Positions 7,405-40,542 of a DNA stretch of 64,000 nucleotides are shown here, one piece after another. The translations under genes were made by a program, and so were the position numbers. Origin of the DNA: Candidatus Omnitrophota bacterium (GTDB lineage: Bacteria > Omnitrophota > Gorgyraeia > Tantalellales > Tantalellaceae). The stretch spans positions 12,212 to 76,211 of the forward strand of contig JBDRNE010000115.1 of assembly GCA_043811395.1 (NCBI GenBank), written 5' to 3'. The notes beneath the pieces were generated by a model that was not told the origin of the DNA, made no database searches, and was given only the letters and a program-made list of their open reading frames with translations. The first letter of the stretch is position 1. Each line of letters begins with the position of its first letter.

Positions 7405-7428
7405 GGTGCGCGTTTCTTGAAAACAAAT

Positions 7429-24972: not shown

Positions 24973-25610
24973 AAAAAGGTTTTTTTATTACTTTTGATGG
25001 GCCTGAAGGGAGCGGGAAAAGTACCCATTCAGTTAGATTGAAAGACGATCTTACTTTAGACGGATATGATGTTATTTATACAAGAGAACCCGGTGGGACT
25101 TTACTCGGCCAAAAGATACGGGACGTTTTGTTGAAAAATGAGGATATTAAACCTGGAAAACAGGCGGAGCTATTACTTTTTGAGGCAGATAGGGCTCAAC
25201 ATGTGGAAGAAATAATCAAACCAGCTTTGGACAAAGGAAAAACCGTTATTTGTGACCGTTTTAACACAGCTACTTTTGCTTATCAGGGATACGGTGCTGG
25301 TATGGATATAAATATGATAAGAAGCATAGATGATTTCGTAACAAACGGAATTTTTCCTGATATTACGCTGATTTTAGATATTGAGGTTAATATGGGGCTT
25401 TCGCGTGCCGGAAAGAGATGCTCTGCCGATAAAATGGAAAAAAGGCCGTATGAATTTCATGAAAGAGTAAGACAGGGGTACCTTGATATCGCGAAAAAGT
25501 TTCCTAAAAAGGTAAAGGTTATACAAGTAAAAAACGATATAGACGAGACATATAAATTTATAAAAAATGAGGTGTATGATTTTATTGGGCGGAATAAAAG
25601 GTCAGGATAA
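24969..25610 (+). CDS. tmk: Thymidylate kinase
   Basis: The P-loop is FDGPEGSGKST. The ATG at 24969 follows GGAGA and overlaps the cysS stop codon (ATGA). The track start at 24957 is TTG. Confidence 0.9.
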   Translation: MKKGFFITFDGPEGSGKSTHSVRLKDDLTLDGYDVIYTREPGGTLLGQKIRDVLLKNEDIKPGKQAELLLFEADRAQHVEEIIKPALDKGKTVICDRFNTATFAYQGYGAGMDINMIRSIDDFVTNGIFPDITLILDIEVNMGLSRAGKRCSADKMEKRPYEFHERVRQGYLDIAKKFPKKVKVIQVKNDIDETYKFIKNEVYDFIGRNKRSG

Positions 25611-26568: not shown

Positions 26569-26629
26569 CGCTCAAAGCGGAGCAAAAATTACTTCAATGT
26601 ATATACTAAGGCTGAGGAGATTATAAAAA

Positions 26630-27439
26630 ATGAATGAAATTATACAGGTACAGCTTAGAACTGCCGGAGAAATAAAAAATTTTATTACAGGAGGATTAAA
26701 ATTCGAGGTTGGTGACAGGGTTATTGTTGAAGCTGACAGAGGGCTTGAATACGGGACGGTAGCCTCCCCCAGCGAAAAGGTTACGGAAGCCGTTAAAACT
26801 CCTGAAAAACCTTTACGAAAAGTAATCCGAAAAAGTAATCCCTGGGATGAAAAACAGATAGCAAAAAATAAGGCAAAGACAAAAGACCTTATGAATGTTT
26901 GTGAAAAGAAAATACAAGAACATAAGCTTCCCATGAAACTTGTTGATGCGGAATATTCTTTTGACCGGTCAAAAATAATTTTTTATTTCACATCAGAAAG
27001 CAGAGTGGATTTCAGGAATCTCGTAAAAAATTTAGCAAGTATTTTCAGAGTACGAATTGAGTTAAGGCAGATTGGGGTGAGAGACGAGGCTCGGCTTCTT
27101 GGCGGTCATGGATCGTGCGGCAGGGAGCTTTGCTGTATGTCTTTTCTTAAAAATTTCGAACCTGTTACAATTAAAATGGCTAAAGTCCAAAATCTTCCGT
27201 TTAATCCTTCTAAAATTTCAGGGCTGTGCGGTCGTCTTATGTGTTGTTTAGGATATGAATATGCTACTTACAAGGAAGCTTCGAAAGCATTGCCCAAGGT
27301 GGGTAAGGAGATTGCGACAGATCAGGGAAAATGTAAGGTGATAGCAGTTAATCCTTTGAAAGGAATAATTACAGTTGATTTTGGAGAAGGAAAAATAAAA
27401 GATATAAAAACAGAGGAAATAAAGGAGTTAAAGAAATAA
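26630..27439 (+). CDS. PSP1 C-terminal domain protein (YaaT/RicT-like)
   Basis: The Cys-rich PSP1 core is present (GSCGRELCCMSFL...CGRLMCCL). It has the conserved position between holB and metG. Confidence 0.8.
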   Translation: MNEIIQVQLRTAGEIKNFITGGLKFEVGDRVIVEADRGLEYGTVASPSEKVTEAVKTPEKPLRKVIRKSNPWDEKQIAKNKAKTKDLMNVCEKKIQEHKLPMKLVDAEYSFDRSKIIFYFTSESRVDFRNLVKNLASIFRVRIELRQIGVRDEARLLGGHGSCGRELCCMSFLKNFEPVTIKMAKVQNLPFNPSKISGLCGRLMCCLGYEYATYKEASKALPKVGKEIATDQGKCKVIAVNPLKGIITVDFGEGKIKDIKTEEIKELKK

Positions 27440-27441
27440 GT

Positions 27442-29007
27442 ATGAAAAAAAAACAGTTTTATATTACAACACCGATATATTATGTTAACGCGAATCCTCA
27501 TATAGGCCACGCATATACTCAAATCGCGGTTGATGTTTTATCCCGGTACCATAAAATGTTGGGTGAAGAAGTGTTCTTTCTTACGGGAACGGATGAGCAT
27601 GGTGAAAAAATAGAGGAAGCGACGTTAAAATCAGGATTGGGGCAAGGCCGCGAAAAAGAGTTTGTTGACAAAATAGTGCCGAATTTTAAAAAAGTATGGG
27701 ACATTTTGGGGATAGAGTACGATTATTTTATAAGGACAACGGATAGTGTTCACAAAGAAACAGTACAAGAGTTTCTTAATAAAATGAAAGAAAACGGTGA
27801 TATTTATCAGGGAGAATATGACGGATGGTTTTGTGTTCCATGCGAAACTTTCTGGACCGACGGTCAGGCAAAAGACGGTATTTGCCCTGAATGCAGTCGG
27901 AAACTTCAGCGTATAAAAGAAAAAAATTATTTTTTCAAAATGAGTAAATATCAAGATTGGCTTATCGATTATATTAAAGCTAATCAGACTTTCATCATGC
28001 CTAAAAACCGCAGAAATGAAGTTCTTGGGTTTTTGAAGGAAGAATTGACAGATTTATGTATATCACGTCCTAAAAACAGGATGTCTTGGGGAGTGGAACT
28101 ACCCTTTGATAAAGACTATGTTGTGTATGTTTGGTTTGACGCGCTTATAAATTACGCGTCAGGTCTTCGCGCGTGCCACGCGTTTGACAAATATTGGCCG
28201 GCAGATTTTCATATAATTGCTAAAGATATATTGCGCCATCACGCGGTTTATTGGCCGATAATGCTAAAAAGTTTAAGTATGGAACTTCCAAAAACCATTT
28301 TTGCCCATGGATGGTGGAAAATGGGAGACGAAAAAATATCAAAGTCCAAAGGCAATATAATTGATCCTGTTTTTCTCGCGGAAAAATATGGAGTGGACGC
28401 TCTTAGATATTTTTTACTGAAAGCGGTTTCTTTTGGGCAGGACGGTGTTTATACGGAAGATGCCTTTATCCACTTGTATAACAGCGATCTTGCTAATGAT
28501 CTGGGTAATCTTTTAAATAGGACGCTTACAATGCTTGAAAAATATTTGGTAAATCCTGTTGCCCCGAATCTAGGGATTATGCCGAAAAACGAAGTCGTAC
28601 AGTCGGGTAAGATTAGAAAAGCACTTTGTGATTTGTTCCCTCGGGTTAAGGAACGCATGGAAAACCCGAATCTTTTTTTAAAAGAAGCTTTAGAAGAAAT
28701 AATGTCAGTTGTCGGGATAGCGAATAAATATATTGAAGAAACCGCTCCGTGGAAATACAACAAAGCAAACAATAAAAAAGCGGTAGATTTAATTATTTCG
28801 GATTTACTAGAAGTATTGAGGTCGGTCGCTATCGCTCTTTTTCCTTTTATGCCACACGCGTCGCAAAAAATATGGGATCAGCTTGGGCTTAGAGGAGAAG
28901 TAAGGGGTGAAGAAATTTCTATTGAGAAGAACGCGGATAACTGGAGAAGGTTTCCTGCTGGAACAAAAATCGCGAAAAAAGATCCGCTTTTTCCGCGTGT
29001 ACAATAA
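27442..29007 (+). CDS. metG: Methionyl-tRNA synthetase (short form)
   Basis: HIGH (NPHIGHAYT), KMSKS (KISKSKGN) and a Zn-knuckle (CVPC...CPEC) are present. Confidence 0.95.
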   Translation: MKKKQFYITTPIYYVNANPHIGHAYTQIAVDVLSRYHKMLGEEVFFLTGTDEHGEKIEEATLKSGLGQGREKEFVDKIVPNFKKVWDILGIEYDYFIRTTDSVHKETVQEFLNKMKENGDIYQGEYDGWFCVPCETFWTDGQAKDGICPECSRKLQRIKEKNYFFKMSKYQDWLIDYIKANQTFIMPKNRRNEVLGFLKEELTDLCISRPKNRMSWGVELPFDKDYVVYVWFDALINYASGLRACHAFDKYWPADFHIIAKDILRHHAVYWPIMLKSLSMELPKTIFAHGWWKMGDEKISKSKGNIIDPVFLAEKYGVDALRYFLLKAVSFGQDGVYTEDAFIHLYNSDLANDLGNLLNRTLTMLEKYLVNPVAPNLGIMPKNEVVQSGKIRKALCDLFPRVKERMENPNLFLKEALEEIMSVVGIANKYIEETAPWKYNKANNKKAVDLIISDLLEVLRSVAIALFPFMPHASQKIWDQLGLRGEVRGEEISIEKNADNWRRFPAGTKIAKKDPLFPRVQ

Positions 29008-29094
29008 ATTTATGAGTTTAAAAAAAGATAAAACTGGAAGTTTTATAATCTATACCGGCAAAACAGTTTCGTATAAAACGCTTAAGAGGATTAT

Positions 29095-31074
29095 ATGAAC
29101 AAAAAAAATGGTAACATTTTTTCATTGTGGCTGGGGAATGTGGTTTTTTTAGGCATTTTTCTTGGAATCTCTTTTTGGTTTTTTGAAGTTATGCTCCACA
29201 TGTATGTATTCGGGTTAACTGACCAGACTTTTATACAGCATTTGCTAATGCCGGATCCTCATGAATTTTGGATGAGGTCTTGCGTTACGATTTTTTTTGT
29301 GCTTTTTGGGGTTTACGCGCAACATAGCATAAACTTAAGAAAAATCGCGGAGAAAAAACTTAGGCGGCAAAACCAGTTTTTTTATAAAACAATAGATTCC
29401 CTGACTCATCCTTTTTATGTTATAGATACGGACGACTACAAAATAAGAATAGCCAATTCCGCGGCATGCCAAAATATTCTGCCTAAAGGTAAAACTTGTT
29501 ACGAAATTACGCACAAAAGGATTAATCCATGCTCTGGGATGGAACATGGATGCCCTTTAGAGGAAGTAAAAAGGACAAAAAAACCGGCAATTGTAGAACA
29601 TATACATTATGATGCTAATGGCAATCTTCGCAACGTGGAGGTTCACGCTTACCCCATTTTTGATGAAGACGGTTTTGTTGTACAGATGATAGAGTATTCT
29701 TTGGATGTTACGGAACGAAAAAAAGCCGAAGAACAACTTAAACAAGCGTTGGCTGTTACGAACATAATTTTAAAGGAATTGCCTTTTGGTATTATGATAG
29801 TAGGCTTAGACAAAAGAGTACGTAAGATTAATAAGGCGGCTTTGACAATGCTGGGGCTTAATGACGAAAAAGAAATTATTGGTAAAATTTGTCATAAACG
29901 CGTTTGTCCGGCTGAAGAAAATAAATGTCCGATAATAGACCTTGGAGAAGATGGTAATATTTCGGAAAAGGAACTTGTTACTAGTGACGGCAAAAGAATT
30001 CCTATCTTAAAAAGCGTTTTACCGATAACGCTTGAAGGGGAAGAAGTTTTACTTGAGTCATTTATTGGTATTGTTGAACAAAAAAAAGCGGAAGAGGCTA
30101 TTGTAAAAGCCCGGGATGAAATGGAAACGCGTGTCGAGGAACGGATCAAAGAACTGGCAGGCATGAACGAAGCGTTAATCAAAAGTACGAAAGAATTGGA
30201 GTCTGCCAATCGCGCGCTTCAGGATAGCCAGGTTCAGCTTGTTCAATCTGAAAAGATGGCCAGTCTCGGCCAGCTTGCGGCTGGTATCGCGCATGAGATT
30301 AATAATCCAATAGGATTTATTTTGAGTAATTTAAATACGCTGAATGAATATGTTAAAGTTTTTAAGAAACTTTTGGCCGAATATGAGAAATTTATCGATA
30401 AAACAAAAAACCTCAAACAGCATAAAGATTTTGTTTCTGCCATTATGGATGTCCGCGAAGAGAATAGTTTAGATTACATTATAAAAGATGTGGATAATCT
30501 TTTCAAAGAAACTAAAATCGGCGCGGATCGCGTAAAAGACATTGTTGAAGGGTTGAGAACTTTTGCTCACACGGATGAAACAACTATGGTGCAGACTGAC
30601 ATTAACAGATGTCTTGAGAATACGTTAAAAATTGTGTGGAATGAAATTAAATATAAGTGTGACATAGAGAAGAAATTTGAAAAATTACCTTTAGTTTCTT
30701 GTCATCCGGGGCAGATAAATCAGGTTTTTTTAAATCTTTTGGTTAACGCCGCGCAGGCAATAAGAGGGGAAGGGACTATTACTATTGAGACGTCTCTTGC
30801 GGGAAGCCATGTTCTTATCAAAATATCGGATACTGGTGGAGGAATTTCCGCTGAAAACCTTTTGAGGGTGTTTGACCCGTTTTTTACGACTAAAGAAGTA
30901 GGAAAAGGCACAGGATTAGGACTTTCAATTTCACATGGAATAATTCAAAAACATGGCGGGACAATTGAAGTTAAAAGCAAAGTTGGCGAAGGTTCTGTTT
31001 TTACGATAAAATTGCCGGTAAAGAATCAGACCGGGATAACGGAACAACAAAAGAAAACGAGTAGAAAATCATGA
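29095..31074 (+). CDS. Sensor histidine kinase with two N-terminal TM helices and PAS domains
   Basis: The first PAS domain carries a 4-Cys cluster. The HisKA H-box is AAGIAHEINNP and the HATPase_c is GTGLGLSISHG. The RBS is AAGAGGA. Confidence 0.85.
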   Translation: MNKKNGNIFSLWLGNVVFLGIFLGISFWFFEVMLHMYVFGLTDQTFIQHLLMPDPHEFWMRSCVTIFFVLFGVYAQHSINLRKIAEKKLRRQNQFFYKTIDSLTHPFYVIDTDDYKIRIANSAACQNILPKGKTCYEITHKRINPCSGMEHGCPLEEVKRTKKPAIVEHIHYDANGNLRNVEVHAYPIFDEDGFVVQMIEYSLDVTERKKAEEQLKQALAVTNIILKELPFGIMIVGLDKRVRKINKAALTMLGLNDEKEIIGKICHKRVCPAEENKCPIIDLGEDGNISEKELVTSDGKRIPILKSVLPITLEGEEVLLESFIGIVEQKKAEEAIVKARDEMETRVEERIKELAGMNEALIKSTKELESANRALQDSQVQLVQSEKMASLGQLAAGIAHEINNPIGFILSNLNTLNEYVKVFKKLLAEYEKFIDKTKNLKQHKDFVSAIMDVREENSLDYIIKDVDNLFKETKIGADRVKDIVEGLRTFAHTDETTMVQTDINRCLENTLKIVWNEIKYKCDIEKKFEKLPLVSCHPGQINQVFLNLLVNAAQAIRGEGTITIETSLAGSHVLIKISDTGGGISAENLLRVFDPFFTTKEVGKGTGLGLSISHGIIQKHGGTIEVKSKVGEGSVFTIKLPVKNQTGITEQQKKTSRKS

Positions 31075-32219
31075 AAACAATAGATGTAGCGATTGTTGAC
31101 GATGAACAAAATGTGTTAAATTCGCTCAAACGTCTTTTTAGAAAAGAAAACTATGAGCTTTTTTTTACGACAAATTATGAAAAAGTAATGCACCTTTTAA
31201 GTGAAGGGGAAATTAAAGTTGTAATGTCGGATCAAAAAATGATAGGGATAACCGGTATAGAGTTTTTGAAAAACATAAAAAAACAGTATCCCCGTGTAGT
31301 AAACATACTTTTCACCGGGTATGCTGACATGAATATGGCGGAAGACGCTATAAACGAGGGAGAAGTTTATCGTTTTGTAAATAAACCCTGGAATGATGAT
31401 GATTTGAAAAGTATTGTGCGTCAAGCCGTAGATAAGTATGATTTAGAAGAAAAAAACAGATGCCTCGCGGAAAACATAAATAAACAAAACAAAAAACTTA
31501 CTTTTTTGAATAAAAAACTGAAAAATATGTATGACGCGCAGAAAGTTTTCACATCAACCCTGGCACATGAACTCAGGACTCCTTTAGCTTCTATACGCAT
31601 GGCGCTGGATATAGTTATGAAACAGGCGTTTGGGGAGATTAATAATAAACAGGAAGATTTGTTAAATAAAGCTAAAACGAATGTTAATAGGTTAAACCGG
31701 CTTATTAATGATATTTTGGACCTTTCAAAAATGGAATTTGAAGGCGCACAACTTAACTTTGAAAAATATGAGCTGAATAGTATTATACAGGGAGTTATAG
31801 ACAACCAAAGACCTTTAGCCGTAGAGCATGGCCTTTTTCTGAGGACGCGATTGGATCAAAAGATTTCAAAAGTTAGACTTGATTCTGACCGAATAACACA
31901 GGTTTTGGATAACCTTATAAATAACGCGATTAAATTTACCGTTCAAGGAGGTATAACCGTAATATCCGAACTGGACGCTTTAAAAAAACAAGTAATAATA
32001 TGTGTTGAAGATACTGGTATGGGAATTCCGGAAAAAGATATTCCGAAATTGTTTAAAAAATTTCAACAACTAGCGCAACCACAGACGCAGAGTGCTAAAG
32101 GGACGGGCTTAGGGCTTGTGATATGCAAAGAAATCATCCATCATCATGGCGGGGAAATCTGGATAAAAGCAGGGATTGAGCATGGCAGTAGTTTTTGTTT
32201 TTCTCTGCCGATAAAATAG
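31071..32219 (+). CDS. Hybrid response-regulator receiver + histidine kinase (REC-HisKA-HATPase)
   Basis: The N-terminal REC is VAIVDDE...VVMSDQKM. The H-box is AHELRTPL and the HATPase_c is GTGLGLVICKEI. It overlaps the upstream kinase gene by 4 nt. Confidence 0.8.
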   Translation: MKTIDVAIVDDEQNVLNSLKRLFRKENYELFFTTNYEKVMHLLSEGEIKVVMSDQKMIGITGIEFLKNIKKQYPRVVNILFTGYADMNMAEDAINEGEVYRFVNKPWNDDDLKSIVRQAVDKYDLEEKNRCLAENINKQNKKLTFLNKKLKNMYDAQKVFTSTLAHELRTPLASIRMALDIVMKQAFGEINNKQEDLLNKAKTNVNRLNRLINDILDLSKMEFEGAQLNFEKYELNSIIQGVIDNQRPLAVEHGLFLRTRLDQKISKVRLDSDRITQVLDNLINNAIKFTVQGGITVISELDALKKQVIICVEDTGMGIPEKDIPKLFKKFQQLAQPQTQSAKGTGLGLVICKEIIHHHGGEIWIKAGIEHGSSFCFSLPIK

Positions 32220-32243
32220 CGGTCGGGACGTGGAAAGGAACGT

Positions 32244-32993
32244 ATGAAAGAGAAGACGATTTTATTAATTGACGATGAGGCTGATTTTGTTGAAATGATT
32301 AAATTTCAGCTGGAATCGGAAGGATATATTGTAGTTACCGCAAGTGACGGTGAAGAAGGGCTTTTGAAACTAAAGCAGATTAAGCCTGATTTGATTGTAT
32401 TGGATATTAATATGCCAAATATGGGAGGTTTGGAGTTTTATAACAAGATATTTACTCCGCATGGAAGAACTAAATATCCTGTTTTAGTTGTAACCGCGAG
32501 ATTGAATCTAGAGGAAATTTTTAAAGAGATAGAAGTAGAAGGATTTTTGTCTAAACCGTTTGAAATCAACCATCTGATGTCGGAAATTAAAAGAATAACA
32601 CTTGGGGGCATAAATCCAGTTGTGTTTTTAGCGGCGCCAAAAAACAGCACGCATGTTAAAAAGATTATGGAAATATTCGTTAATGAAAGATATGATGTTA
32701 TTGTTTGTGGCAATATACAGGAACTTAGTGCGCACGTTAAAAGGCATGGACTGCATTTTATACTTTTAGAATATGCTGGTAAAGAATTTTTTGAAAATTT
32801 TTTGACAAAGATTAAAAGCGATATAAAGCTTAAAAATATACCGATAATTGTTTACTCTTACTCGGAATTCACAATAGACGAAACTCGATGGCCGGCGCTT
32901 GGTGTAAATATGTTTTTGGATCATCCTGATGATTATGGCACGTTTGTGGAAGCGGTTAAGGAAGCTCAGTTAAAAGAAAAAGATGAAACTTAA
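32244..32993 (+). CDS. Response regulator: REC domain plus a C-terminal degenerate (pseudo-)receiver-like domain, with no DNA-binding domain
   Basis: The canonical REC is ILLIDDEADF...LIVLDINMP. The second domain (FILLEY) lacks the acidic phospho-acceptor context. Confidence 0.65.
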   Translation: MKEKTILLIDDEADFVEMIKFQLESEGYIVVTASDGEEGLLKLKQIKPDLIVLDINMPNMGGLEFYNKIFTPHGRTKYPVLVVTARLNLEEIFKEIEVEGFLSKPFEINHLMSEIKRITLGGINPVVFLAAPKNSTHVKKIMEIFVNERYDVIVCGNIQELSAHVKRHGLHFILLEYAGKEFFENFLTKIKSDIKLKNIPIIVYSYSEFTIDETRWPALGVNMFLDHPDDYGTFVEAVKEAQLKEKDET

Positions 32994-33047
32994 ACTTAAT
33001 AGATAACTTCCTTTTATAAAAAATAACAACACGAAAAGCTGTTTTAA

Positions 33048-33365
33048 AAAAAACAGCATAATTCTAGTCTTTCAGCGTTTCAGAAAAAGGTTCTAAGAGT
33101 TGTTCTAGGTATCCCCAAAGGGCAAGTAAGGTCTTATGGATTTATAGCAGAAAAGGTAGGTTTGTCTAAAGCGGCAAGAGCTGTTGGACGAGTTCTTCGT
33201 GGTAATCTGTATATCCCGTATGTGCCGTGCCATAGGGGTATTTTTTTAGATGGGTCAATAAGTGGATATTCCGCGAAAGGTGGAATTAAGGCAAAAATAC
33301 GTATGCTTGAAAAAGAAGGGGTGCGGATCAGTAGCGTGTGGCTGTTAGATAATAAATGTTGGTAA
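33048..33365 (+). pseudogene. Ogt/MGMT C-terminal (methyltransferase active-site/DNA-binding) domain remnant without a canonical start
   Basis: The frame is open from 33048 and encodes FQKKVLRVVLGIPKGQVRSYGFIAEKVGLSKAARAVGRVLRGN...VPCHRGI (PCHR active site). The only in-frame start is TTG at 33162, which falls inside the domain. No ATG, GTG or TTG lies upstream, and the frame is closed by TAA at 33045. Confidence 0.5.
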
Positions 33366-33417
33366 CATATAAACGTTTGCTGTTAAGTGACTGCGAAGAG
33401 GTTTTAATGGAGGAAAT

Positions 33418-34794
33418 ATGAAATTGGTGGACACTCACTGCCATCTTAATTTTTCGGATTATGATAAAGATTTGCCGGAAGTATTGACCCGGGCCAAAAC
33501 CGCGGGCCTGGTCAGAATTATAGTTCCGGGGACGGATATAAAAAGCAGTATAAAGGCCGTTGAATTAGCTAAAAAGAATAAAATGATATTTGCCGCTGTG
33601 GGAGTACATCCTCATGAAGCTGATGATGCGGGCGTTTTAGACGTGGAAAAATTGAGGGATATTGCTGTTGGGAGTGACAAGGTAATCGCAATAGGCGAAA
33701 TTGGCTTAGACAAATATAAAAATTATTCAAAAATAGAGAATCAGCAAAAACTTTTTAGTGAGTGTTTACGTCTAGCGCGAACACTTGATCTGCCCGTTAT
33801 TATTCACAATAGACGAGCCGGGAAAGAAATGTTAGATATTTTAAAAAAATTTAAAAATACTGGAATAAAAGGTGTTTTTCATTGTTTTTCAGAGGACATA
33901 TCTTTTTTGAACGCAATACTTGAATTAGGTATGTATGTTTCTTTTGCGGGTAATATTACTTTTAAAAACGCTTTTGATTCGCGTAAGACGGCACAAGCCG
34001 TGCCTTTGGAGAAACTTCTTTTAGAAACGGATTCGCCTTTTATTACGCCGGAGCCTTACAGAGGCAAACGCAATGAACCGGCATATGTTAAAAACCTTTT
34101 AGATGTTTACGCAAAAATGTATAAATTGTCGGTAGAAGATGTAGCTAGGGTTACGACTCATAACGCGAATAAATTATTTAATCTTGGAATTAAAGAAAAA
34201 GGCGTGATAGCTTACGCTATACGGGATTCTTTGTATCTGAACATTACGAACAGGTGTACCAATAGATGTGGGTTTTGCACGAGGCAATATTCAAATTTTG
34301 TAAAGGGACATAAACTTTCTCTTGGTTCAGAGCCTTTGGCCGGAGAAATAATCCAAAAACTAAAAAAGGTTTCAAAATATAAGGAAATAGTATTTTGCGG
34401 TTTTGGAGAAGCTACTCTTAGGCTAAATACGGTTATAAAAATAGCGGCATACGTAAAAAGGCAAGGAGGTAAAGTTCGATTAACAACGAATGGACAGGGG
34501 AATCTCATTGCTGGATATAGTATAGCGCCAAAACTTAAGGGTATTGTTGACGCGGTGTCGGTAAGCCTGAATGAGGCAGAAGCGGATATGTATAGCCGGT
34601 TATGTTGTCCAAGTTTTGGCAAAAAAGCATATAGCGCGATAATGGACTTTATTAAAGAATGTGTCGAGCAGTCGATTAAAGTTGAAGTAACTTGTCTTGA
34701 TATGATAGGGGGTGAAGCTGTTTCCGCCTGTCGGAAGATGGCAAAAGATTTAGGGGCAGAATTTAGGATGAGGCATTTAGATGTAGTTGGTTAG
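33418..34794 (+). CDS. TatD-family metal-dependent hydrolase fused to a C-terminal radical SAM domain
   Basis: The N-terminal ~255 aa are TatD-like (VDTHCHLNF...HPHEAD...ETDSPF). The C-terminus carries CTNRCGFC (CxxxCxxC) with radical SAM core features. The RBS is GGAGGAAAT. Confidence 0.85.
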   Translation: MKLVDTHCHLNFSDYDKDLPEVLTRAKTAGLVRIIVPGTDIKSSIKAVELAKKNKMIFAAVGVHPHEADDAGVLDVEKLRDIAVGSDKVIAIGEIGLDKYKNYSKIENQQKLFSECLRLARTLDLPVIIHNRRAGKEMLDILKKFKNTGIKGVFHCFSEDISFLNAILELGMYVSFAGNITFKNAFDSRKTAQAVPLEKLLLETDSPFITPEPYRGKRNEPAYVKNLLDVYAKMYKLSVEDVARVTTHNANKLFNLGIKEKGVIAYAIRDSLYLNITNRCTNRCGFCTRQYSNFVKGHKLSLGSEPLAGEIIQKLKKVSKYKEIVFCGFGEATLRLNTVIKIAAYVKRQGGKVRLTTNGQGNLIAGYSIAPKLKGIVDAVSVSLNEAEADMYSRLCCPSFGKKAYSAIMDFIKECVEQSIKVEVTCLDMIGGEAVSACRKMAKDLGAEFRMRHLDVVG

Positions 34795-34861
34795 TTGGCG
34801 GAGGAGAGAAGAGTAAATTATTAAAACAGGGAATGTGAAGATACAGTAGGGGTGGGCTCTT

Positions 34862-35956
34862 GTGTCCTACCGTAATGGTGAATATCCGGCGATGAAAATA
34901 TTTAAAATTGTTAAAAACAATAAGCTTTATACTGTACTTTTTCTCTTTGTTTTATTGATAAATATTCTGGTTTTCACTGATTGGATAATGGAAAAATTTT
35001 CACCAAGCAAAAAACCGGAAGTTACTCTGACGCAATGTGAAGCTAGTTCCCATAAAGACGATATAAAAGCGAGCCAGGACAAATTAAGTGTTGTAGCAAA
35101 ACAAAACCCGTTGTTGTATTTTTTTCTAGCAATGTTTAATTTTACGTTGCTATTTATGTTGTTAATCGGTTTGATTCTCGATTTGTATTTTTTGCGGCAA
35201 TGGATAAAAAAGAAAAAAATAGATATATGTATTCTTTCCCAAAAGGAATCTGTCTGGGGCATTAGTGACGTTGTGCGAGTTATTCTGATAAACATGTCTT
35301 TTGGATATACGTTTTTGATTATACAGGGCACGTTATCAAAAGTTTTTCCTGTAGTTGGTAATGAAAATTTCCGCATGATTTTTAACACAATGATCATGAA
35401 TGTCATCGGGATAAGTGTTGTATTGTATTTTGTTATAAAAAAAGGCAAACAAAACATTGAAGCAGTAGGGCTTACATCTCAAAGCTTTACGAAAAGCGTG
35501 TTTTATGCTGTTATCGGATATATCTCTTTAGGGCCGCTTCTTGTGCTGATAATGACTGGAACTTTTTTTGTTATCGATTTTTTTCATTATAAACCGCAGG
35601 TTCAATCTATTGTACAGATTTTTGTGAAAGAAAACAATCTGCCGGTACTTTTCTTTTCAACGCTTTTTGCGGGTGTTTTTGGTCCGATTGTGGAGGAAAT
35701 TTTTTTTAGAGGGTTTATGTATTCGGCAATAAAGAAAAGTATAGGCGTTTTAGGTGCGATGATAATAACATCGGTAGTTTTTTCGCTTTTACATGCGCAT
35801 GTGATAGGATTTTTGCCGATAATGACATTGGGTTTATTGCTTGCTTATTTATATGAAAAAACAGGTTCGCTAACAGCTTCGATTACTGTGCATATTATGC
35901 ATAATGTTGCTATGCTTGTTTTGGTTTTTCTAGTGCGTTGTATTGGCGCTCAGTAA
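34862..35956 (+). CDS. CPBP-family (CAAX/Abi) intramembrane metalloprotease
   Basis: The protein is multi-TM. The EExxxR motif (PIVEEIFFRG) and the His motifs (FSLLHAH, HIMHN) are present. The track start is GTG; an alternative ATG lies at 34892. Confidence 0.8.
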   Translation: MSYRNGEYPAMKIFKIVKNNKLYTVLFLFVLLINILVFTDWIMEKFSPSKKPEVTLTQCEASSHKDDIKASQDKLSVVAKQNPLLYFFLAMFNFTLLFMLLIGLILDLYFLRQWIKKKKIDICILSQKESVWGISDVVRVILINMSFGYTFLIIQGTLSKVFPVVGNENFRMIFNTMIMNVIGISVVLYFVIKKGKQNIEAVGLTSQSFTKSVFYAVIGYISLGPLLVLIMTGTFFVIDFFHYKPQVQSIVQIFVKENNLPVLFFSTLFAGVFGPIVEEIFFRGFMYSAIKKSIGVLGAMIITSVVFSLLHAHVIGFLPIMTLGLLLAYLYEKTGSLTASITVHIMHNVAMLVLVFLVRCIGAQ

Positions 35957-35980
35957 AATATGCCGTTAGGAGGGGGTACT

Positions 35981-37012
35981 GTGAAGTATGAAACAATAAA
36001 ATGGAAGAATGACGGGGTTGAATTGATTGATCAAAGGCTTCTCCCGTTAAAGGAAAAGTATATTGTTTGCCGAACAGTTAAGGATATGTGGAGCGCGATA
36101 AAAGATATGAAGCTTAGAGGCGCTCCCGCTATAGGAATAGCCGGTGCATATGGGATGTATTTAGGTGTGCGTGGCAGTAAAACAAAAACCTTTTCAATCT
36201 TTAAAAAAGAAATTGATAAATGCGCGAAATATTTAGGGTCAGCGCGGCCGACGGCTCGAAATCTTTTTTGGGCGTTAGAGCGCGCAGTGCTTCTTGTTGA
36301 AAAAAACAGGGAAAAACCGGTTTCTGAGATTAAAAAATTAATGCTAACTGATGCTCATTTAATTTTAAAAGAGGATGAGAATATATGCAGGACGATTGGG
36401 CGGTTTGGGGAGAAGCTCATTAAAAAGAACTCAGCAGTTCTTACGCACTGTAATGCCGGAGGCTTAGCTACTTCAGGGTACGGAACCGCGCTTGGAGTTA
36501 TTTTTTCGGCAAAGAAAAAGATTTATAGAGTTTTTGTTGATGAAACGCGCCCATGGCTACAGGGCGCACGGTTGACCACATGGGAACTTACAAAAGCAAA
36601 AATGCCCGTGGTTTTAATTTGTGATAATATGGCTTCTGCGATTATGGCGAAAGGAGAAGTAGACGCGGTTGTTGTCGGCGCGGATCGTATCGCGCGGAAC
36701 GGGGATACCGCCAATAAGATCGGGACATACTCTCTTGCGGTATCCGCGAAGTATCATAAGGTTCCTTTTTATGTCGCGGCGCCGGTTTCTACATTTGATT
36801 TTTCTATTGCTTCGGGCCGGGAAATTCCCATAGAAGAAAGATGCTCTTCGGAGATAAAAATAATCAATAAAAAGTATATTACCGTAAAAGATGTGAAAGT
36901 GAAAAATCCGGCATTTGATGTTACGCCGTCAAAATTAATTACAGCTATAATTACGGAAAAAGGTGTTATTAAAAAACCAAATAAAAAGAGGATAAGAGAA
37001 GTGATTGGGTAG
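35981..37012 (+). CDS. mtnA: Methylthioribose-1-phosphate isomerase / eIF-2B-like sugar-phosphate isomerase
   Basis: It belongs to the MtnA/eIF2B family (YETIKWKNDGVELIDQRLLP...). The GTG at 35981 follows AGGAGGGGG; the track ATG at 35960 has no RBS. Confidence 0.8.
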   Translation: MKYETIKWKNDGVELIDQRLLPLKEKYIVCRTVKDMWSAIKDMKLRGAPAIGIAGAYGMYLGVRGSKTKTFSIFKKEIDKCAKYLGSARPTARNLFWALERAVLLVEKNREKPVSEIKKLMLTDAHLILKEDENICRTIGRFGEKLIKKNSAVLTHCNAGGLATSGYGTALGVIFSAKKKIYRVFVDETRPWLQGARLTTWELTKAKMPVVLICDNMASAIMAKGEVDAVVVGADRIARNGDTANKIGTYSLAVSAKYHKVPFYVAAPVSTFDFSIASGREIPIEERCSSEIKIINKKYITVKDVKVKNPAFDVTPSKLITAIITEKGVIKKPNKKRIREVIG

Positions 37013-37128
37013 AAGGGAAGAGGCTTGTGTTTGTTTTGGTACATAGATTTTCGGACAGGCAAGAGCCATTTGGTTTATGCGTTCGGTTCAAACTTGTTTC
37101 TAACTGTCAGGCGGGTTGGTGAAATCTT

Positions 37129-38019
37129 ATGAAAGAATTAAAATTCATTGAATACATAAAGAAACGAGCCGGAAAACCCGGAAAAGGTATTATTGCCGGG
37201 ATAGGCGATGATGCGGCTGTCATTGAATATAGGGATAATCAATATCTTTTATGGGCAACGGATATGATTATTGAGGGGACTCATTTTACGCTTAAAAATG
37301 CTTCGTTAGAAAACATTGGGCACAAAGCGGTTGCGGTTAATATCAGCGATATCGCGGCAATGGGCGGTGAGCCTAAGTACATTACGGTAAACATTGGCGT
37401 TCCACGCGGATTTACGGCGAAACAATTAAGCAGGATATATGACGGCATATTTAGCATATGCGGAAATTATGGTATGTCTATTGTAGGTGGAGATACAAAT
37501 GCTTCGGATAAGCTGGTGATAGATGTTTCAATCTTAGGGGTGGCAAGGAAGAACGCATTAATTCGGCGTAACGGAGCAAAAGAGGGAGATCTTATATTGA
37601 TTACAGGCCCGATTCGAGATGGTAAAAAAGAGCATTTAACTTTTGTTCCGCGCGTTAAAGAATCACGATTTCTTTCGCGAAACTTCAAAATCACATCAAT
37701 GATAGATGTATCGGACGGTATTTCTGTGGATTTAAACCGTTTATGTGCTGAGAGTAAGACCGGTGCCATAATATACCAATCTGCTGTTCTTCTTTCAGAG
37801 AATCTTTCATTGGAAGATGCTTTGTATTACGGCGAAAGTTTTGAGTTATTGTTTACAATGTCGCCAAGCGAAGTTAAAAAATTGTTTTTAAGTTCGGAAA
37901 AGCACAAATTTGCTTATTGTGTAATTGGTGAAATAACGGATAAAAAAGAGGGGTGTATTTTAGTGAAGAAAGAAGGGCTTATGGTACGCCTCCAAAAACG
38001 TGGATACCGGCATATGTAA
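37129..38019 (+). CDS. thiL: Thiamine-monophosphate kinase
   Basis: The AIRS/ThiL N-terminus is GIGDDAAVIE...ATDMIIEGTHF. Confidence 0.9.
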   Translation: MKELKFIEYIKKRAGKPGKGIIAGIGDDAAVIEYRDNQYLLWATDMIIEGTHFTLKNASLENIGHKAVAVNISDIAAMGGEPKYITVNIGVPRGFTAKQLSRIYDGIFSICGNYGMSIVGGDTNASDKLVIDVSILGVARKNALIRRNGAKEGDLILITGPIRDGKKEHLTFVPRVKESRFLSRNFKITSMIDVSDGISVDLNRLCAESKTGAIIYQSAVLLSENLSLEDALYYGESFELLFTMSPSEVKKLFLSSEKHKFAYCVIGEITDKKEGCILVKKEGLMVRLQKRGYRHM

Positions 38020-38041
38020 TGATTAGTAAAGAGGCTGTTAA

Positions 38042-38506
38042 ATGGAAAACATAAAAAAGATTACTACCAGTTCTCCTCTCGAAACCATGAATTTGGGAGA
38101 AAAAATAGCGAAACAGTTAAAAAAAGGAGATCTTGTTGCTCTTGTCGGGGAGTTGGGCGCTGGCAAAACTGTTTTTGTTAAAGGATTAGCAAATGGGCTT
38201 GGAGTTAAGGATGCGTCTTACGTTAACAGCCCGTCATTTGTTATTATAAAGGAATATGAGGGGCAAAAAAATTTATACCATTTTGATGTTTACCGAATAG
38301 ATCTAAGAAGTTTTTGTGAAACTTTGGATTATAAACGTTATTTTTACGGATGCGGAATAACTGTAATTGAATGGGCAGACAAAATAAAAGAAGTTTTGCC
38401 GGAACAGTATTTGGAAGTAACTATCAAATACGGTTCGAAACAGAATAGACTCTTAAGTTTTCGAGCGATAGGCGGTAAATTTAAGAAAATTATTGCAAAG
38501 ATATAA
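38042..38506 (+). CDS. tsaE: tRNA t6A37 threonylcarbamoyladenosine biosynthesis protein TsaE
   Basis: The P-loop is GELGAGKT. It is the YjeE family. The RBS is AAAGAGG. Confidence 0.9.
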   Translation: MENIKKITTSSPLETMNLGEKIAKQLKKGDLVALVGELGAGKTVFVKGLANGLGVKDASYVNSPSFVIIKEYEGQKNLYHFDVYRIDLRSFCETLDYKRYFYGCGITVIEWADKIKEVLPEQYLEVTIKYGSKQNRLLSFRAIGGKFKKIIAKI

Positions 38507-38608
38507 GAGCTAAAAGCTTTTAAAACAGCTGTTTTAGATTGGGGGAGGCAAGGATGGCTCTTTTCTGCAGAAAAATTTTTTTTTAACACAAATTGTAAAG
38601 AGAGAAGA

Positions 38609-39295
38609 ATGAAAGTTTTAGCATTTGATACTTCAACAACATTTTTAACAATAGCATGTGTTGAGGATAATAAACTTAAAAAAAAATATCATAAAGACGT
38701 AGGAATACGCCATAGTGAGATTTTAATCGAAAAAATAAAGGATATGTTGGATAGTCTCGGCTGGACTATGCGGGATTTGGACCTAATATGCGTGGGTTCA
38801 GGGCCTGGTTCTTTTACCGGATTACGTGTAGCTATGGCAACGGTTAAGGGTTTTTTGACGTCACTTTCTGCTAAAGCAGTTGTTGTCCCGACAGTGGACG
38901 CGATGGCGGGTAATGTATCAAAAAGGTTTGCATCCAGGAAAAAACATAAATTAATAGCACCTTTTTTAGACGCTCGAAAGAACAAAATATATACGTGTGT
39001 TTATGATTGTTTTAAGCGAGATGTTAAACGTGTTTCAGGTTATATTTTAGCTGAGCCCGAAGATTTTTTAAAAGGGTTAAAACAAAATGTATTTTTTTTC
39101 GGAGATGCCGTGAAGAAATATAAGAAGGAATTAGATTCGTGCCCTTTTGCGGATTATTCGGAAGAAGTAGATTGGTATCCAAAAGCAGTTTATATTGCGC
39201 GAATAGGTATAAAAAAATCTTTAAAAAAAACAGATAATCATAAAACTATAGAACCTTTATATTTGCATGAAAAAGAATGTAGCATAAGCAGATAA
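38609..39295 (+). CDS. tsaB: tRNA t6A37 biosynthesis protein TsaB (YeaZ)
   Basis: The Kae1/YeaZ fold N-terminus is VLAFDTST. Confidence 0.85.
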   Translation: MKVLAFDTSTTFLTIACVEDNKLKKKYHKDVGIRHSEILIEKIKDMLDSLGWTMRDLDLICVGSGPGSFTGLRVAMATVKGFLTSLSAKAVVVPTVDAMAGNVSKRFASRKKHKLIAPFLDARKNKIYTCVYDCFKRDVKRVSGYILAEPEDFLKGLKQNVFFFGDAVKKYKKELDSCPFADYSEEVDWYPKAVYIARIGIKKSLKKTDNHKTIEPLYLHEKECSISR

Positions 39296-39297
39296 AT

Positions 39298-39395
39298 GGG
39301 GTCAGCCCTTGAAATGTGAAACTTAGCATAAATAAATTGTCAAGTTTCACATTTCAAGGGCTGACCCCAAAGCTCAGGGCTGACCCCAAAGCTCC
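39298..39395. repeat. Long palindromic repeat element R2: the second copy of the 27-bp stem hairpin plus tandem partial copies
   Basis: The arms at 39298-39324 and 39342-39368 are identical to those of R1. The loop is the inverse of the R1 loop. The direct repeat GGGCTGACCCCAAAGCTC occurs at 39358-39375 and 39377-39394. Confidence 0.8.
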
Positions 39396-39417
39396 TGGAG
39401 AATTAAGGAAGAAGGAT

Positions 39418-40542
39418 ATGATGACAAGTTACAGGCCGACATGGGCGGAAATAAATTTGAACGCGATTAAACATAATCTAAACTGTATAAGGGGTGTTAT
39501 TAGCGACAAGGTTAGCATTCTCGCGGTGGTTAAAGCCAATGCCTACGGCCATGGCATATGTCCTGTCAGCAAAGTTCTTGTGGAAGAAGGTGTGGATTAT
39601 TTAGGAGTGGCGACGGTCGATGAAGCATTAACTTTAAGAAAAGCAGGTATTTTAGTGCCCATTCTTGTTTTAGGGGCTGTTCTTAAAGAAGAGGCAAAAG
39701 CGGCTGTAAAGCATGATATTACACTTACTTTATGTAGTCGTGCGCTTTTACAAGTTTTTGCGGATATTGCGGACGAAACAAATATGAAGCCGAAAGTACA
39801 TGTTAAAATTGATACAGGAATGGGAAGAATAGGAATATGGCATGAGGAGGCAGTTCATTTCATGCGGGAAGTGTATTTAATGAAAAAAATTGAAATGGAA
39901 GGGATCTATACGCATTTTTCTTCTGCCGCAAGAGATAAAATGGTAACACAACTGCAAATAGAATATTTCGATAAAGTTTTAGAAGATTTAGAGAAAAGGG
40001 AAGGCATTTGTGTGAAATACCGGCATTCTGCTAATAGTATCGCGGTAGTTGATTGGAAATCGTCTCATTTGAATATGGTGCGTCCGGGTATTTTGCTTTA
40101 TGGCGTATACCCGAAAGAAGATTTTCGAAAAGAACTTAAGCTTAATCCGGTTATGAGTCTGAAAACCAAAATAGTGCATTTAAAAGAAGCGCCCCCGGGC
40201 AGAGCGATAAGTTATGGGAGAACCTATATAACACAGAAGTGGACGAAGATTGCTACAATTCCAATAGGGTACGCTGACGGATATGGGCGCATTCTTTCGA
40301 ATAAAGCGGAAGCTTTAATTCGGGGTCAATATGTGAGAATTGTGGGTATGGTTACAATGGATCAGACGCTTTTGGATGTCGGTCATATTGAAAATGTTCA
40401 AGAGGGCGATGAAGTGGTTTTGGTTGGCAGACAAGTTAATTCAGAAGTTAATATTGAAAAAATAGCGAAACTTGCGGGAACCATACCTTACGAGATTTTA
40501 TCCGCAATAACAGATAGAGTTCCGAGGGTTTATACTCGCTAG
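39418..40542 (+). CDS. alr: Alanine racemase
   Basis: The PLP-Lys motif is AVVKANAYGHG. The ATG at 39418 follows AGGAAG. The track start at 39316 would place the N-terminus inside the R2 hairpin repeat. Confidence 0.9.
   Translation: MMTSYRPTWAEINLNAIKHNLNCIRGVISDKVSILAVVKANAYGHGICPVSKVLVEEGVDYLGVATVDEALTLRKAGILVPILVLGAVLKEEAKAAVKHDITLTLCSRALLQVFADIADETNMKPKVHVKIDTGMGRIGIWHEEAVHFMREVYLMKKIEMEGIYTHFSSAARDKMVTQLQIEYFDKVLEDLEKREGICVKYRHSANSIAVVDWKSSHLNMVRPGILLYGVYPKEDFRKELKLNPVMSLKTKIVHLKEAPPGRAISYGRTYITQKWTKIATIPIGYADGYGRILSNKAEALIRGQYVRIVGMVTMDQTLLDVGHIENVQEGDEVVLVGRQVNSEVNIEKIAKLAGTIPYEILSAITDRVPRVYTR

Follow-up and report, generated by a model that had tools for sequence, protein, structure and literature searches.

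In the window, the 64,000-nucleotide stretch of Omnitrophota DNA analyzed here, a gene encoding a TatD-type hydrolase fused in frame to a radical SAM domain lies between an Ogt-like (MGMT) frame and a gene for a CPBP intramembrane protease (Table 1). The sequence-only reading had described both the fusion, with its CTNRCGFC motif, and the protease, and both are present as single open reading frames with the expected domains. TatD_DNase (PF01026) covers residues 4–255 of the fusion (E = 2.5e-85; 286.4 bits against a Pfam cutoff of 27) and Radical_SAM (PF04055) covers residues 274–433 (E = 3.7e-15, Pfam). In NCBIfam, the protein exceeds the cutoffs of TIGR00010 (279.8 bits; cutoff 206), which places it in the TatD family, and of TIGR04038 (233.8 bits; cutoff 129.7), which it matches at model positions 2–191 of 192. 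The protease scores 75.8 bits against PF02517 (cutoff 22.4) and carries the motifs EEIFFR, FSLLH and HIMHN. Together with those of the Ogt-like frame, these domain scores are far beyond chance. An AlphaFold2 model of the fusion is compact (pLDDT 93.9, pTM 0.83).

Table 1. Features of the locus (positions in the window)
Feature	Position	Strand	Remarks
tmk - holB - PSP1/ricT - metG	24957-29007	+	Pfam; genes usually found 5′ of ycfH/yabD-type tatD
Three two-component genes: PAS histidine kinase, receiver-kinase hybrid, receiver protein	29095-32993	+	Pfam
Hairpin GCTGTTTT/AAAACAGC	33038-33057	.	45 nt past response-regulator stop codon
Start-less, degraded single-domain MGMT (Ogt-like) gene	33048-33365	+	PF01035 match 33075-33323; PCHR 33225-33236
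GGAGG ribosome-binding site	33409-33413	+	5 nt 5′ of fusion ATG; direct sequence reading
TatD::radical SAM fusion gene	33418-34794	+	Single ORF, 458 aa plus stop; PF01026 + PF04055; TIGR00010 + TIGR04038
TatD domain, YcfH/YabD type (Group II, HxH motif), residues 1-257	33418-34188	+	PF01026
Minimal radical SAM domain, family TIGR04038, residues 264-458	34207-34791	+	
CX3CX2C [4Fe-4S] cluster motif CTNRCGFC (C280, C284, C287), residues 280-287	34255-34278	+	
CPBP (Rce1-like) intramembrane glutamic protease, 364 aa	34862-35956	+	PF02517

The catalytic residues of both halves are intact in the window and are kept in at least 97% of the 75 fusions that we compared. In the TatD half, these are the metal ligands H7, H9, E94, H130, H155 and D205; in the radical SAM half, they are the cluster cysteines C280, C284 and C287 and, within FCGFGE at residues 326–331, a motif of the FCGxGE SAM-binding type, C327, G328, G330 and E331. 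The identities of the two halves correlate across the 75 fusions (r = 0.69), and the halves have co-evolved as one gene across approximately nine phylum-level labels.

The best PDB matches of the TatD half are S. aureus TatD (2gzx, 6l25) and E. coli YcfH (1yix), with YjjV and TatD ranking lower. When NCBIfam models of the E. coli paralogues are applied to the fusion, YcfH (NF008075, 210.7 bits) outscores TatD (161.5) and YjjV (159.5), although 210.7 bits is well below the YcfH equivalog cutoff of 438. Relative to YcfH, B. subtilis YabD and S. aureus TatD (SAV0491; PDB 1yix, 6l25, 2gzx), the TatD half is 39–40% identical, aligns over the entire TatD fold with TM-scores of 0.91–0.96, and shares the Group II HxH motif, the full set of metal ligands and the tmk-holB-...-metG-tatD gene context. 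These relatives are single-domain proteins of ~255–265 aa, whereas the fusion adds a radical SAM domain of ~195 aa. The TatD half is very probably a housekeeping paralogue of the YcfH/YabD type. We also considered the QatD component of the Qat anti-phage system, and rejected it: NF041926 gives 102.9 bits against a cutoff of 230, the 99.5 bits assigned to QatD by PADLOC correspond to generic TatD similarity, and the neighbors are housekeeping genes.

The sequence-only reading had assigned the protein to a little-characterized class of TatD-associated radical SAM proteins with no known function, and this assignment holds at the curated cutoff. TIGR04038 (IPR023821, "TatD family nuclease-associated radical SAM protein") is a curated, uncharacterized family whose members lie beside, or are fused with, a TatD-family hydrolase. 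The protein in the window is an ordinary member, with the CX3CX2C motif and a physical tie to TatD that here takes the form of an in-frame fusion. Ten diverse relatives all pass TIGR04038, with 246–288 bits, and the sister family TIGR04100 scores 187.3 bits on the fusion, below its cutoff of 262. We looked for functional literature or an experimental datum on TIGR04038 members and found none. The earlier reading had allowed that the radical SAM half might belong to a well-characterized family unrelated to nucleic acids; it instead lies outside the well-characterized families. Spore photoproduct lyase is a known radical SAM DNA-repair enzyme, but it is ~340 aa in length, has its own DNA-binding elements and has no TatD link, and the radical SAM half is 8% identical to it, with no specific sequence match. 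The domain is not uniformly basic (median pI 7.8; 44% of members above 8). The radical SAM half resembles only the generic minimal cores of NifB, PFL-AE, viperin and MoaA and, since fold and sequence comparison show generic similarity alone, its substrate is not deducible from them.

Among these cores, MoaA (GTP 3′,8-cyclase) is the best sequence match of solved structure (E = 3.6e-5 across the radical SAM core), with similar GxGEP, TNG and SxSL motifs and a conserved C-terminal glycine in both proteins. One possibility is that the fusion performs small-molecule nucleotide chemistry, in which the radical SAM domain would take a hydrogen from ribose, as do MoaA and viperin, and the TatD domain, a member of the amidohydrolase superfamily, would hydrolyze a phosphate ester of the product. 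The nearest characterized sequence relatives, which are MoaA and those represented by the NCBIfam models of tungsten-cofactor maturase, MoaA and viperin, use NTPs; PADLOC gives 30 bits to pVip; and the glycine that ends the protein, conserved in at least 97% of these 75 proteins, is reminiscent of MoaA, which has a C-terminal GG gate (PMC12625886). However, scores for the MoaA, viperin and maturase types are all far below the family cutoffs (29–32 bits against 231–325 for the MoaA equivalogs in NCBIfam). The fusion also ends ~170 residues past the cluster motif and lacks both the MoaA-type C-terminal auxiliary [4Fe-4S] domain and a C-terminal substrate domain, and, of the 78 cluster representatives that are fused, only 45 end in glycine. 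Further, the que cluster near a stand-alone member (locus L073) has a QueE-like enzyme of its own, and the TatD-family members characterized to date use polymers (PMC10085689, PMC10711561). We regard nucleotide chemistry as decidedly improbable.

It is still less probable, and in our view very much so, that the radical SAM domain works as an activase or maturase, placing a post-translational modification on its own TatD domain or on some other protein, as PFL-AE does on pyruvate formate-lyase. PFL-AE is the archetypal minimal radical SAM enzyme, but it is 16% identical to the radical SAM half, its likeness is limited to the shared core, and a glycyl-radical partner for the fusion is not evident. 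The PFL-AE and NrdG models give 17–18 bits against cutoffs of 131–232, with 17.2 bits for the glycyl-radical activase model TIGR02493 (cutoff 231.75) and 18.3 bits for TIGR02495 (cutoff 131.15).

How widespread is the fused architecture? The same fusion of ~450–460 aa, with a conserved linker between the halves, is present in 75 of the 80 best species-level genome loci, which span approximately nine phylum-level labels and include the isolates Geobacter argillaceus and Geomonas anaerohicana, and all 120 of the best full-length database matches are fused. The concern that the fusion is unique to this genome, an assembly or frameshift artifact that joined two genes, is refuted by these independent genomes and has next to no probability; nothing was found to support it, though stand-alone forms do exist in Firmicutes. 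At locus L058, for example, a stand-alone radical SAM gene lies directly 3′ of tatD in the order metG-tatD-rSAM-ksgA. Clustering at 50% identity (E ≤ 1e-30) yielded 521 family clusters; the best 150 of these comprise 78 full-length fusions and 47 likely complete stand-alone forms. The fused form accounts for about half to two thirds of the TIGR04038 family and is its majority architecture. A radical SAM domain fused to TatD or encoded next to it occurs in at least 596 species-level genomes, in lineages that include Omnitrophota, Thermodesulfovibrionia, Brocadiales-type Planctomycetota, Geobacter and its relatives, and Clostridia. The fusion is the usual and already catalogued form of an uncharacterized family from hundreds of anaerobic bacteria. 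As a partial protein of identical sequence is also in NCBI, under the name "YchF/TatD family DNA exonuclease," the novelty is smaller than the earlier reading implied, and the entity itself is not new.

Across the 80 loci, the recurrent neighbors are MetG (36), PSP1 (30), HolB (26) and Tmk (18). The end of metG is at most 600 nt upstream of the fusion in 30 of the 63 fused loci with enough flank, and the tmk-holB-...-metG-tatD order typical of ycfH and yabD is found in the window and in its relatives. In roughly half of the fused loci, the neighbors are different ones that are specific to the lineage. In the window, a two-component block sits between metG and the Ogt remnant. This block is a lineage-specific insertion: it is shared by the window and its closest relative, L081 (~64–67% nucleotide identity), whereas in L001–L007 and L082–L086 no such block separates metG from the MGMT gene or the fusion.

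The frame upstream of the fusion had been described as the C-terminal domain of Ogt, with an intact PCHR active site but no usable start codon. The active site and the lack of a start codon were confirmed, but the origin in a two-domain protein was not. The frame opens at 33048, immediately behind a TAA at 33045–33047, and ends with a stop at 33363–33365; no ATG, GTG or TTG occurs between the upstream stop and a TTG at 33162, so that it does not qualify as a translatable gene. It nevertheless matches PF01035 (E = 2.9e-24; 85.1 bits with a 105-aa query and 85.5 bits with a 97-aa query), which confirms the DNA-binding/alkyl-acceptor domain with its PCHR cysteine, and also TIGR00589. The six intact relatives are stand-alone, single-domain proteins of ~96–137 aa and the Ogt model NF007626 gives 54 bits against a cutoff of 192, which together led us to reject the C-terminal half of a two-domain Ogt or Ada, in which a ribonuclease-like domain precedes PF01035. 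In these relatives, PF01035 scores 101.5–113.6 bits and begins at residue 17–19, behind ~17 N-terminal codons with an ATG that are missing from the window, whose copy is the lowest scoring of the seven. Although the frame retains the PCHR motif of Ogt/Ada and MGMT-family proteins, other family motifs are altered (NPY to NLY, HRV to HRG, and GYxGG to GYSAKGG). The hairpin in Table 1 runs over the stop codon and into the opening codons of the frame and stands where relatives carry the N-terminal codons of MGMT. In L081, the MGMT gene is wholly absent and the fusion is intact. By these features, the MGMT gene is decaying in the window, with the fusion left intact. Very probably, the two-component block was inserted between metG and the small MGMT gene in this lineage, and the MGMT gene has since lost its start and begun to decay.

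If the neighbors of the fusion are informative, what would they suggest? The sequence-only reading took the co-localization of the Ogt-like frame, the fusion and the CPBP gene as a pointer to DNA damage. In such a module, the alkyltransferase would recognize or remove an alkyl lesion, the radical SAM domain would attack the lesion, and TatD would excise the nucleotide. In one Omnitrophota clade, in which identity between the fusions extends down to 49%, a PCHR-containing MGMT gene of ~96–137 aa lies directly upstream, its stop codon −10 to +79 nt from the fusion start, and a CPBP gene lies directly downstream; with the two genes abutting or overlapping in this way, there may be a local functional tie. 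In addition, E. coli YcfH is a 3′-exonuclease on ssDNA and an AP-endonuclease on dsDNA in vitro, and H2O2 sensitivity is a phenotype of an E. coli mutant in three tatD-family genes, although its MMS sensitivity is very modest (PMC10085689). However, an MGMT-domain gene adjoins the fusion in only 6 of the 80 loci and CPBP in 8, all within that clade, whereas the family-wide neighbors are MetG, PSP1/RicT, HolB and Tmk. Adjacency in the clade is also unspecific, because a complete, tightly packed 13-gene housekeeping string from CysS to Alr is collinear there. Further, the MGMT copy in the window is start-less and the poorest of its kind, the closest relative does without the gene, and the membrane protease has no known link to DNA repair. 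As the adjacency is confined to one clade and the Ogt-like gene is decaying or lost, the alkylation-repair argument from the neighborhood is weak, and we consider the module unlikely. The MGMT remnant and CPBP are probably lineage-specific syntenic neighbors rather than parts of a family-wide system.

Another possibility, also unlikely but slightly less so, is a role in translation quality control or RNA processing, in which the YcfH-type half would hydrolyze the ester of mischarged D-aminoacyl-tRNA or trim RNA 3′ ends and the radical SAM half would modify or repair the same tRNA or rRNA. In support, metG is immediately 5′ of the fusion in 30 of 63 fused loci, ksgA in Firmicutes directly follows the radical SAM gene in its stand-alone form, and PSP1/RicT is encoded upstream and TsaE/TsaB downstream within the window. 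YcfH, together with Synechocystis DTD3, is given as a D-aminoacyl-tRNA deacylase in a passage of PMC10711561 that cites Wydau 2009. The radical SAM profile also has the RNA methylase RlmN among its best sequence matches in the PDB (E = 5e-4), but this similarity is not above that to MoaA or CteB. Moreover, tmk and holB, which are DNA related, belong to the same gene string, and the string is conserved even where tatD has no radical SAM partner; for both reasons, it says little about the added domain. Since the conserved tmk-holB-PSP1-metG-tatD order is an ancient synteny in which replication genes stand beside translation genes, it is uninformative as to substrate. A search of the locus for a tRNA gene or other RNA feature in the window found none.

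The gene is very probably the housekeeping YcfH/YabD-type TatD hydrolase of this Omnitrophota bacterium, in its common fused form with a C-terminal TIGR04038 domain and at its ancestral place after tmk-holB-PSP1-metG. Taking identity and mechanism together, we hold the explanation offered here to be somewhat favored. Its mechanistic part, held with low confidence, is that the fusion most likely serves anaerobes as a bifunctional enzyme that processes nucleic acid ends or lesions. Tentatively, the single polypeptide could bring two active sites to bear on the same nucleic acid substrate, either DNA or RNA/tRNA. Like its homologs E. coli YcfH and S. aureus TatD, the TatD half would act as a two-metal hydrolase, either shortening 3′ ends or incising at abasic or damaged sites. 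From the chemistry of the radical SAM superfamily, C280, C284 and C287 would hold a [4Fe-4S] cluster, reductive cleavage of SAM would generate a 5′-deoxyadenosyl radical, and this radical would take a hydrogen atom from the substrate. With ~195 aa and no auxiliary domain, the radical SAM domain would be comparable to PFL-AE, which acts on a macromolecule; since the domain is so minimal, substrate binding would be provided by the TatD domain. Where hydrolysis by itself is not enough to deal with a terminal or damaged nucleotide, the radical step might convert or mark that nucleotide, either before or after phosphodiester cleavage. A DNA-damage role for the fusion is possible by analogy, because of the 3′-exonuclease and AP-endonuclease activities of E. 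coli YcfH in vitro (PMC10085689) and not because of its neighbors.

It is more speculative, and rather doubtful, that TatD::TIGR04038 proteins are a new kind of radical-SAM-dependent nucleic acid repair or proofreading enzyme of anaerobes and that, in the Omnitrophota clade, they cooperate with a translationally coupled mini-MGMT protein. In such an enzyme, a lesion or blocked 3′ end, whether in DNA or in tRNA, would first be resolved by the 5′-deoxyadenosyl radical and then excised by the two-metal hydrolase.

Finally, we note that the Ogt-like and CPBP genes, as dispensable, lineage-specific companions, should not steer functional hypotheses. Solving the function of a radical SAM domain that is fused to, or encoded beside, a housekeeping YcfH-type TatD hydrolase would also clarify the disputed cellular role of YcfH and YabD, as DNA-repair nuclease or as D-aminoacyl-tRNA deacylase. 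If the fusion does prove to act in repair or proofreading, it would join spore photoproduct lyase as the second DNA-repair activity of the radical SAM type and would assign a function to a family spread over hundreds of species.

The TatD hydrolase and radical SAM domains are encoded by a single ORF containing both Pfam domains and the CTNRCGFC motif (table), in agreement with the in-frame fusion described in the sequence-only reading. That reading had also placed the protein in the class of TatD-associated radical SAM proteins, which is borne out by the NCBIfam model TIGR04038, "TatD family nuclease-associated radical SAM protein" (233.8 bits versus a cutoff of 129.7; model positions 2–191 of 192). 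TIGR00010, "YchF/TatD family DNA exonuclease," also passes (279.8 bits versus a cutoff of 206). Aside from TIGR04038 and its sister family TIGR04100, every named NCBIfam family falls far under its cutoff on the radical SAM half.

Features of the fusion gene, its neighborhood and other parts of the window
Feature	Position	Strand	Details
TatD::radical SAM fusion gene	33418–34794	+	single ORF, 458 aa
Ribosome-binding site GGAGG	33409–33413	+	upstream of fusion ORF
TatD_DNase domain	residues 4–255		complete; Pfam E 2.5e-85
Radical_SAM domain	residues 274–433		Pfam E 3.7e-15
CTNRCGFC motif	residues 280–287
CysS	23518
Tmk	24957
HolB	25567
PSP1	26630
MetG	27442–29007
Two-component insertion	29095–32993		between metG and MGMT frame; 3 genes
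Perfect 8-bp hairpin GCTGTTTT/AAAACAGC	33038–33057		45 nt after stop codon of the response regulator, the last inserted gene
Ogt-like (MGMT) frame	33048–33365	+	open directly after TAA; PF01035 E 2.9e-24; PCHR 33225–33236
CPBP/Rce1-like protease	34862–35956	+	downstream of fusion; PF02517 75.8 bits; EEIFFR, FSLLH, HIMHN motifs
MtnA-type methylthioribose-1-phosphate isomerase	35960–37012		TIGR00512 441 bits
IS200-like Y1 transposase-family ORF	1657–2319	-	PF01797 45 bits
YifB/ComM-type Mg-chelatase-like AAA protein	2378–3910	-	adjoins Y1 transposase-family ORF
PolX-type DNA polymerase, then LigA	5665–9426		HHH_8, pol-beta thumb and PHP domains in PolX; LigA follows directly

Relatives of the radical SAM half are encoded in at least 596 genomes (scan with one genome per species). 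The same fusion is present in 75 of the 80 best loci, mostly at ~450–480 aa with ORFs called from the first start, and the best 120 full-length protein matches are all PF01026+PF04055 fusions, nearly all of 455–460 aa. When 1.84 billion cluster representatives were searched exhaustively with a profile, 521 clusters reached E ≤ 1e-30, the best 150 of which include 78 full-length fusions and 47 apparently complete stand-alone proteins; TIGR04038 was passed by 10 of 10 diverse members (246–288 bits). Record titles of relatives name Omnitrophota, Nitrospirota/Thermodesulfovibrionia, Planctomycetota (Brocadiae-type), Desulfuromonadales/Geobacteraceae, Nitrospinota, Zixibacteria, Firestonebacteria, Edwardsbacteria and Firmicutes, and carriers include the isolates Geobacter argillaceus and Geomonas anaerohicana. 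The fusion occurs widely and belongs to a curated family, so neither refuting case named in the sequence-only reading applies: it is not an artefact or confined to this genome, and no well-characterised family unrelated to nucleic acids includes its radical SAM half.

The other five of the 80 best loci, all from Firmicutes, encode a stand-alone radical SAM protein of ~195 aa. At one of these (L058), the gene lies directly 3′ of tatD in the order metG-tatD-rSAM-ksgA. At a Thermoanaerobacterales locus (L078, 2600–4974), glycine reductase genes (GrdB-type, PF09338/PF07355) lie between tatD and the stand-alone gene, which is followed by a YabE-like gene (DUF348-G5-3D) and a putative ksgA (288 aa), assigned solely by similarity to the ksgA of L058. 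In Desulfofundulus thermobenzoicus (L073, 7938–14043), no TatD gene occurs within 8 kb of a stand-alone TIGR04038 member (258 bits), and a QueD-QueC-DUF366-radical SAM(QueE-like)-FolE cluster lies 2.5 kb downstream of it. We judge this proximity to be coincidence, since that cluster already encodes a radical SAM enzyme itself.

Across 75 fusions, H7, H9, E94, H130, H155 and D205 of the TatD half are kept in at least 97%, as are C280, C284 and C287, the FCGxGE motif (C327, G328, G330, E331), R354, D378, S383, R452 and the C-terminal G458 of the radical SAM half. By median identity to the window protein, the radical SAM half (48%) is slightly better conserved than the TatD half (43%), and the identities of the two halves correlate (r = 0.69); the ~270 fused sequences are too small a set for inter-domain co-evolution analysis. 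The predicted structure of the full-length fusion is compact (pLDDT 93.9, pTM 0.83), and no solved chain in the PDB spans both domains.

By sequence, the TatD half is of the YcfH type. Its closest PDB matches are S. aureus TatD (2gzx, 6l25) and E. coli YcfH (1yix), with E values of 1e-53 to 1e-56, and the YjjV and TatD proteins of E. coli rank below YcfH. The fusion model superposes on 6l25 (TM 0.95, 40% identity) and 1yix (TM 0.91, 39% identity). The YcfH model NF008075 is the top NCBIfam equivalog for this half, yet scores below its cutoff. The half also carries the HxH motif by which Group II is classified (PMC10085689).

With ~195 aa and no additional domain, the radical SAM half amounts to a minimal core (model pLDDT 93.7); a profile search of PDB sequences matched it to MoaA (E 3.6e-5), CteB (1e-4) and RlmN (5e-4). 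The charge and pI of the domain were uninformative as a sign of nucleic-acid binding. A terminal glycine ends 45 of the 78 fused cluster representatives, and a putative MoaA-like C-terminal glycine gate is a lead rather than evidence.

How might the two halves work together? E. coli YcfH has ssDNA 3′-exonuclease and dsDNA AP-endonuclease activity, and a triple mutant of the tatD family shows H2O2 sensitivity but only very modest MMS sensitivity (PMC10085689). PMC10711561, citing Wydau 2009, reports that YcfH and cyanobacterial DTD3 hydrolyse D-aminoacyl-tRNA. The best-supported reading, though with a mechanism to which we assign a rather low probability, is that the fusion serves anaerobes as a bifunctional enzyme: a nucleic-acid 3′ end or lesion would be bound and hydrolysed by the TatD half, and the appended minimal radical SAM domain would act on that substrate too, abstracting a hydrogen atom via a 5′-deoxyadenosyl radical. 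Two of the four alternatives that we weighed start from the radical SAM half, whose similarity to MoaA and viperin is consistent with free-nucleotide chemistry (third by rough weight) and whose similarity to PFL-AE is consistent with a role as an activase (fourth). A function in anti-phage defence (Qat, prokaryotic viperin) was rejected, as the similarity is generic and sub-threshold and the gene context is housekeeping.

The sequence-only reading took the co-localisation of the Ogt remnant, the TatD exonuclease and the radical SAM enzyme to suggest a role for the fusion in processing DNA damage or modification. An alkylation-repair module of this kind, second by rough weight, would account for the MGMT coupling, which is limited to one clade. 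The Ogt and CPBP neighbors were both correctly recognized (table), including the intact PCHR and the lack of a usable start in the Ogt-like frame, as there is no ATG, GTG or TTG ahead of 33162. The frame is not, however, the C-terminal half of a two-domain Ogt, as had been suggested, because intact MGMT proteins of relatives are single-domain, with PF01035 beginning at residue 17–19 (101.5–113.6 bits). Five further relatives carry an MGMT gene of 96–137 aa that terminates -10 to +79 nt from the start of the fusion. The window copy has the lowest PF01035 score of those compared (85.5 bits), lacks ~17 N-terminal codons, the ATG among them, and has altered motifs (NPY to NLY, HRV to HRG, GYxGG to GYSAKGG).

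Loss or decay of the MGMT gene coincides with an insertion encoding a PAS histidine kinase, a receiver-histidine kinase hybrid and a 249-aa receiver protein whose C-terminal half is uncharacterised. The insertion is common to the window and L081, the locus of the closest full-length relative (64% identity), at ~64–67% nucleotide identity, and is absent from the metG-MGMT position in L001–L007 and L082–L086, other relatives' loci. L081 has no MGMT sequence in the 120-nt gap and no tblastn match, while its fusion and CPBP genes, and those downstream, are intact. In a promoter/terminator scan of 32800–36100, promoter-like sites were no commoner than in shuffled sequence, and the sole notable element was a hairpin overlapping the stop codon and first codons of the MGMT frame, where the MGMT N terminus is expected; it scored as terminator-like on the minus strand, with no minus-strand gene nearby. 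On the most parsimonious view, the small MGMT gene was cut off from its expression signals by the insertion; L081 has since lost it, and the window copy is decaying. The fusion can thus do without the MGMT gene.

In the 80 best loci, an MGMT-domain gene lies next to the fusion in only six, CPBP in eight and MtnA in eight, all in the closest, Omnitrophota-like relatives. The link to Ogt and CPBP was thus over-interpreted, and we reject a family-wide linkage to ogt. When every ORF within 5 kb of the gene in these loci was clustered without prior labels, the recurrent neighbors were MetG, directly upstream on the same strand (36/80), PSP1/RicT (YaaT; 30/80), HolB (26/80) and Tmk (18/80), also upstream, and KsgA, directly downstream (7/80, including L058). 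Among fused loci whose upstream flank spans at least 1.7 kb, MetG ends within 600 nt of the gene in 30 of 63. This is the classical ycfH/yabD context (tmk-holB-ycfH in E. coli, metS-yabD in B. subtilis). The metG/ksgA surroundings are consistent with RNA or tRNA quality control, the first of the four alternatives by rough weight. The fusion combines intact sets of catalytic residues, obligate physical coupling and a housekeeping context.

In one Omnitrophota clade, a collinear, co-directional string of 13 genes, CysS-Tmk-HolB-PSP1-MetG-(MGMT)-TatD::rSAM-CPBP-MtnA-ThiL-TsaE-TsaB-Alr, is found in the window (23518–40542) and in L001, L003, L005, L006, L040 and L082–L086. It is kept down to 49% fusion identity, many of its genes overlap or abut, and the order, MGMT included, recurs in five of six further relatives (fusion identity 49–62%). 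Clade-wide, the second gene after the radical SAM enzyme is MtnA; MtnA-type isomerases also serve salvage of 5′-deoxyadenosine by-products of radical SAM enzymes. Elsewhere in the window, PolX and the NAD-dependent DNA ligase LigA are possibly a repair gene pair. Large ORFs are nearly all on the plus strand, GC skew is positive, and ARAGORN found no tRNA or tmRNA genes in the whole 64 kb.

In the fusion, a YcfH-type TatD is joined to an ordinary representative of a family that is known and curated but still uncharacterised. The family is also present as InterPro IPR023821 (bioRxiv 10.1101/2024.11.19.624229), and NCBI already contains a partial protein, among the best 120 full-length matches, that is 100% identical to the window fusion and is named "YchF/TatD family DNA exonuclease." The finding is correct as an observation and is not new: public databases already contain the fused architecture, a model of the family and this identical partial copy. 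Our literature search found no functional study on TIGR04038, IPR023821 or TatD-associated radical SAM proteins. The residual interest is that a housekeeping hydrolase has a widespread, conserved radical SAM partner that is still uncharacterised.
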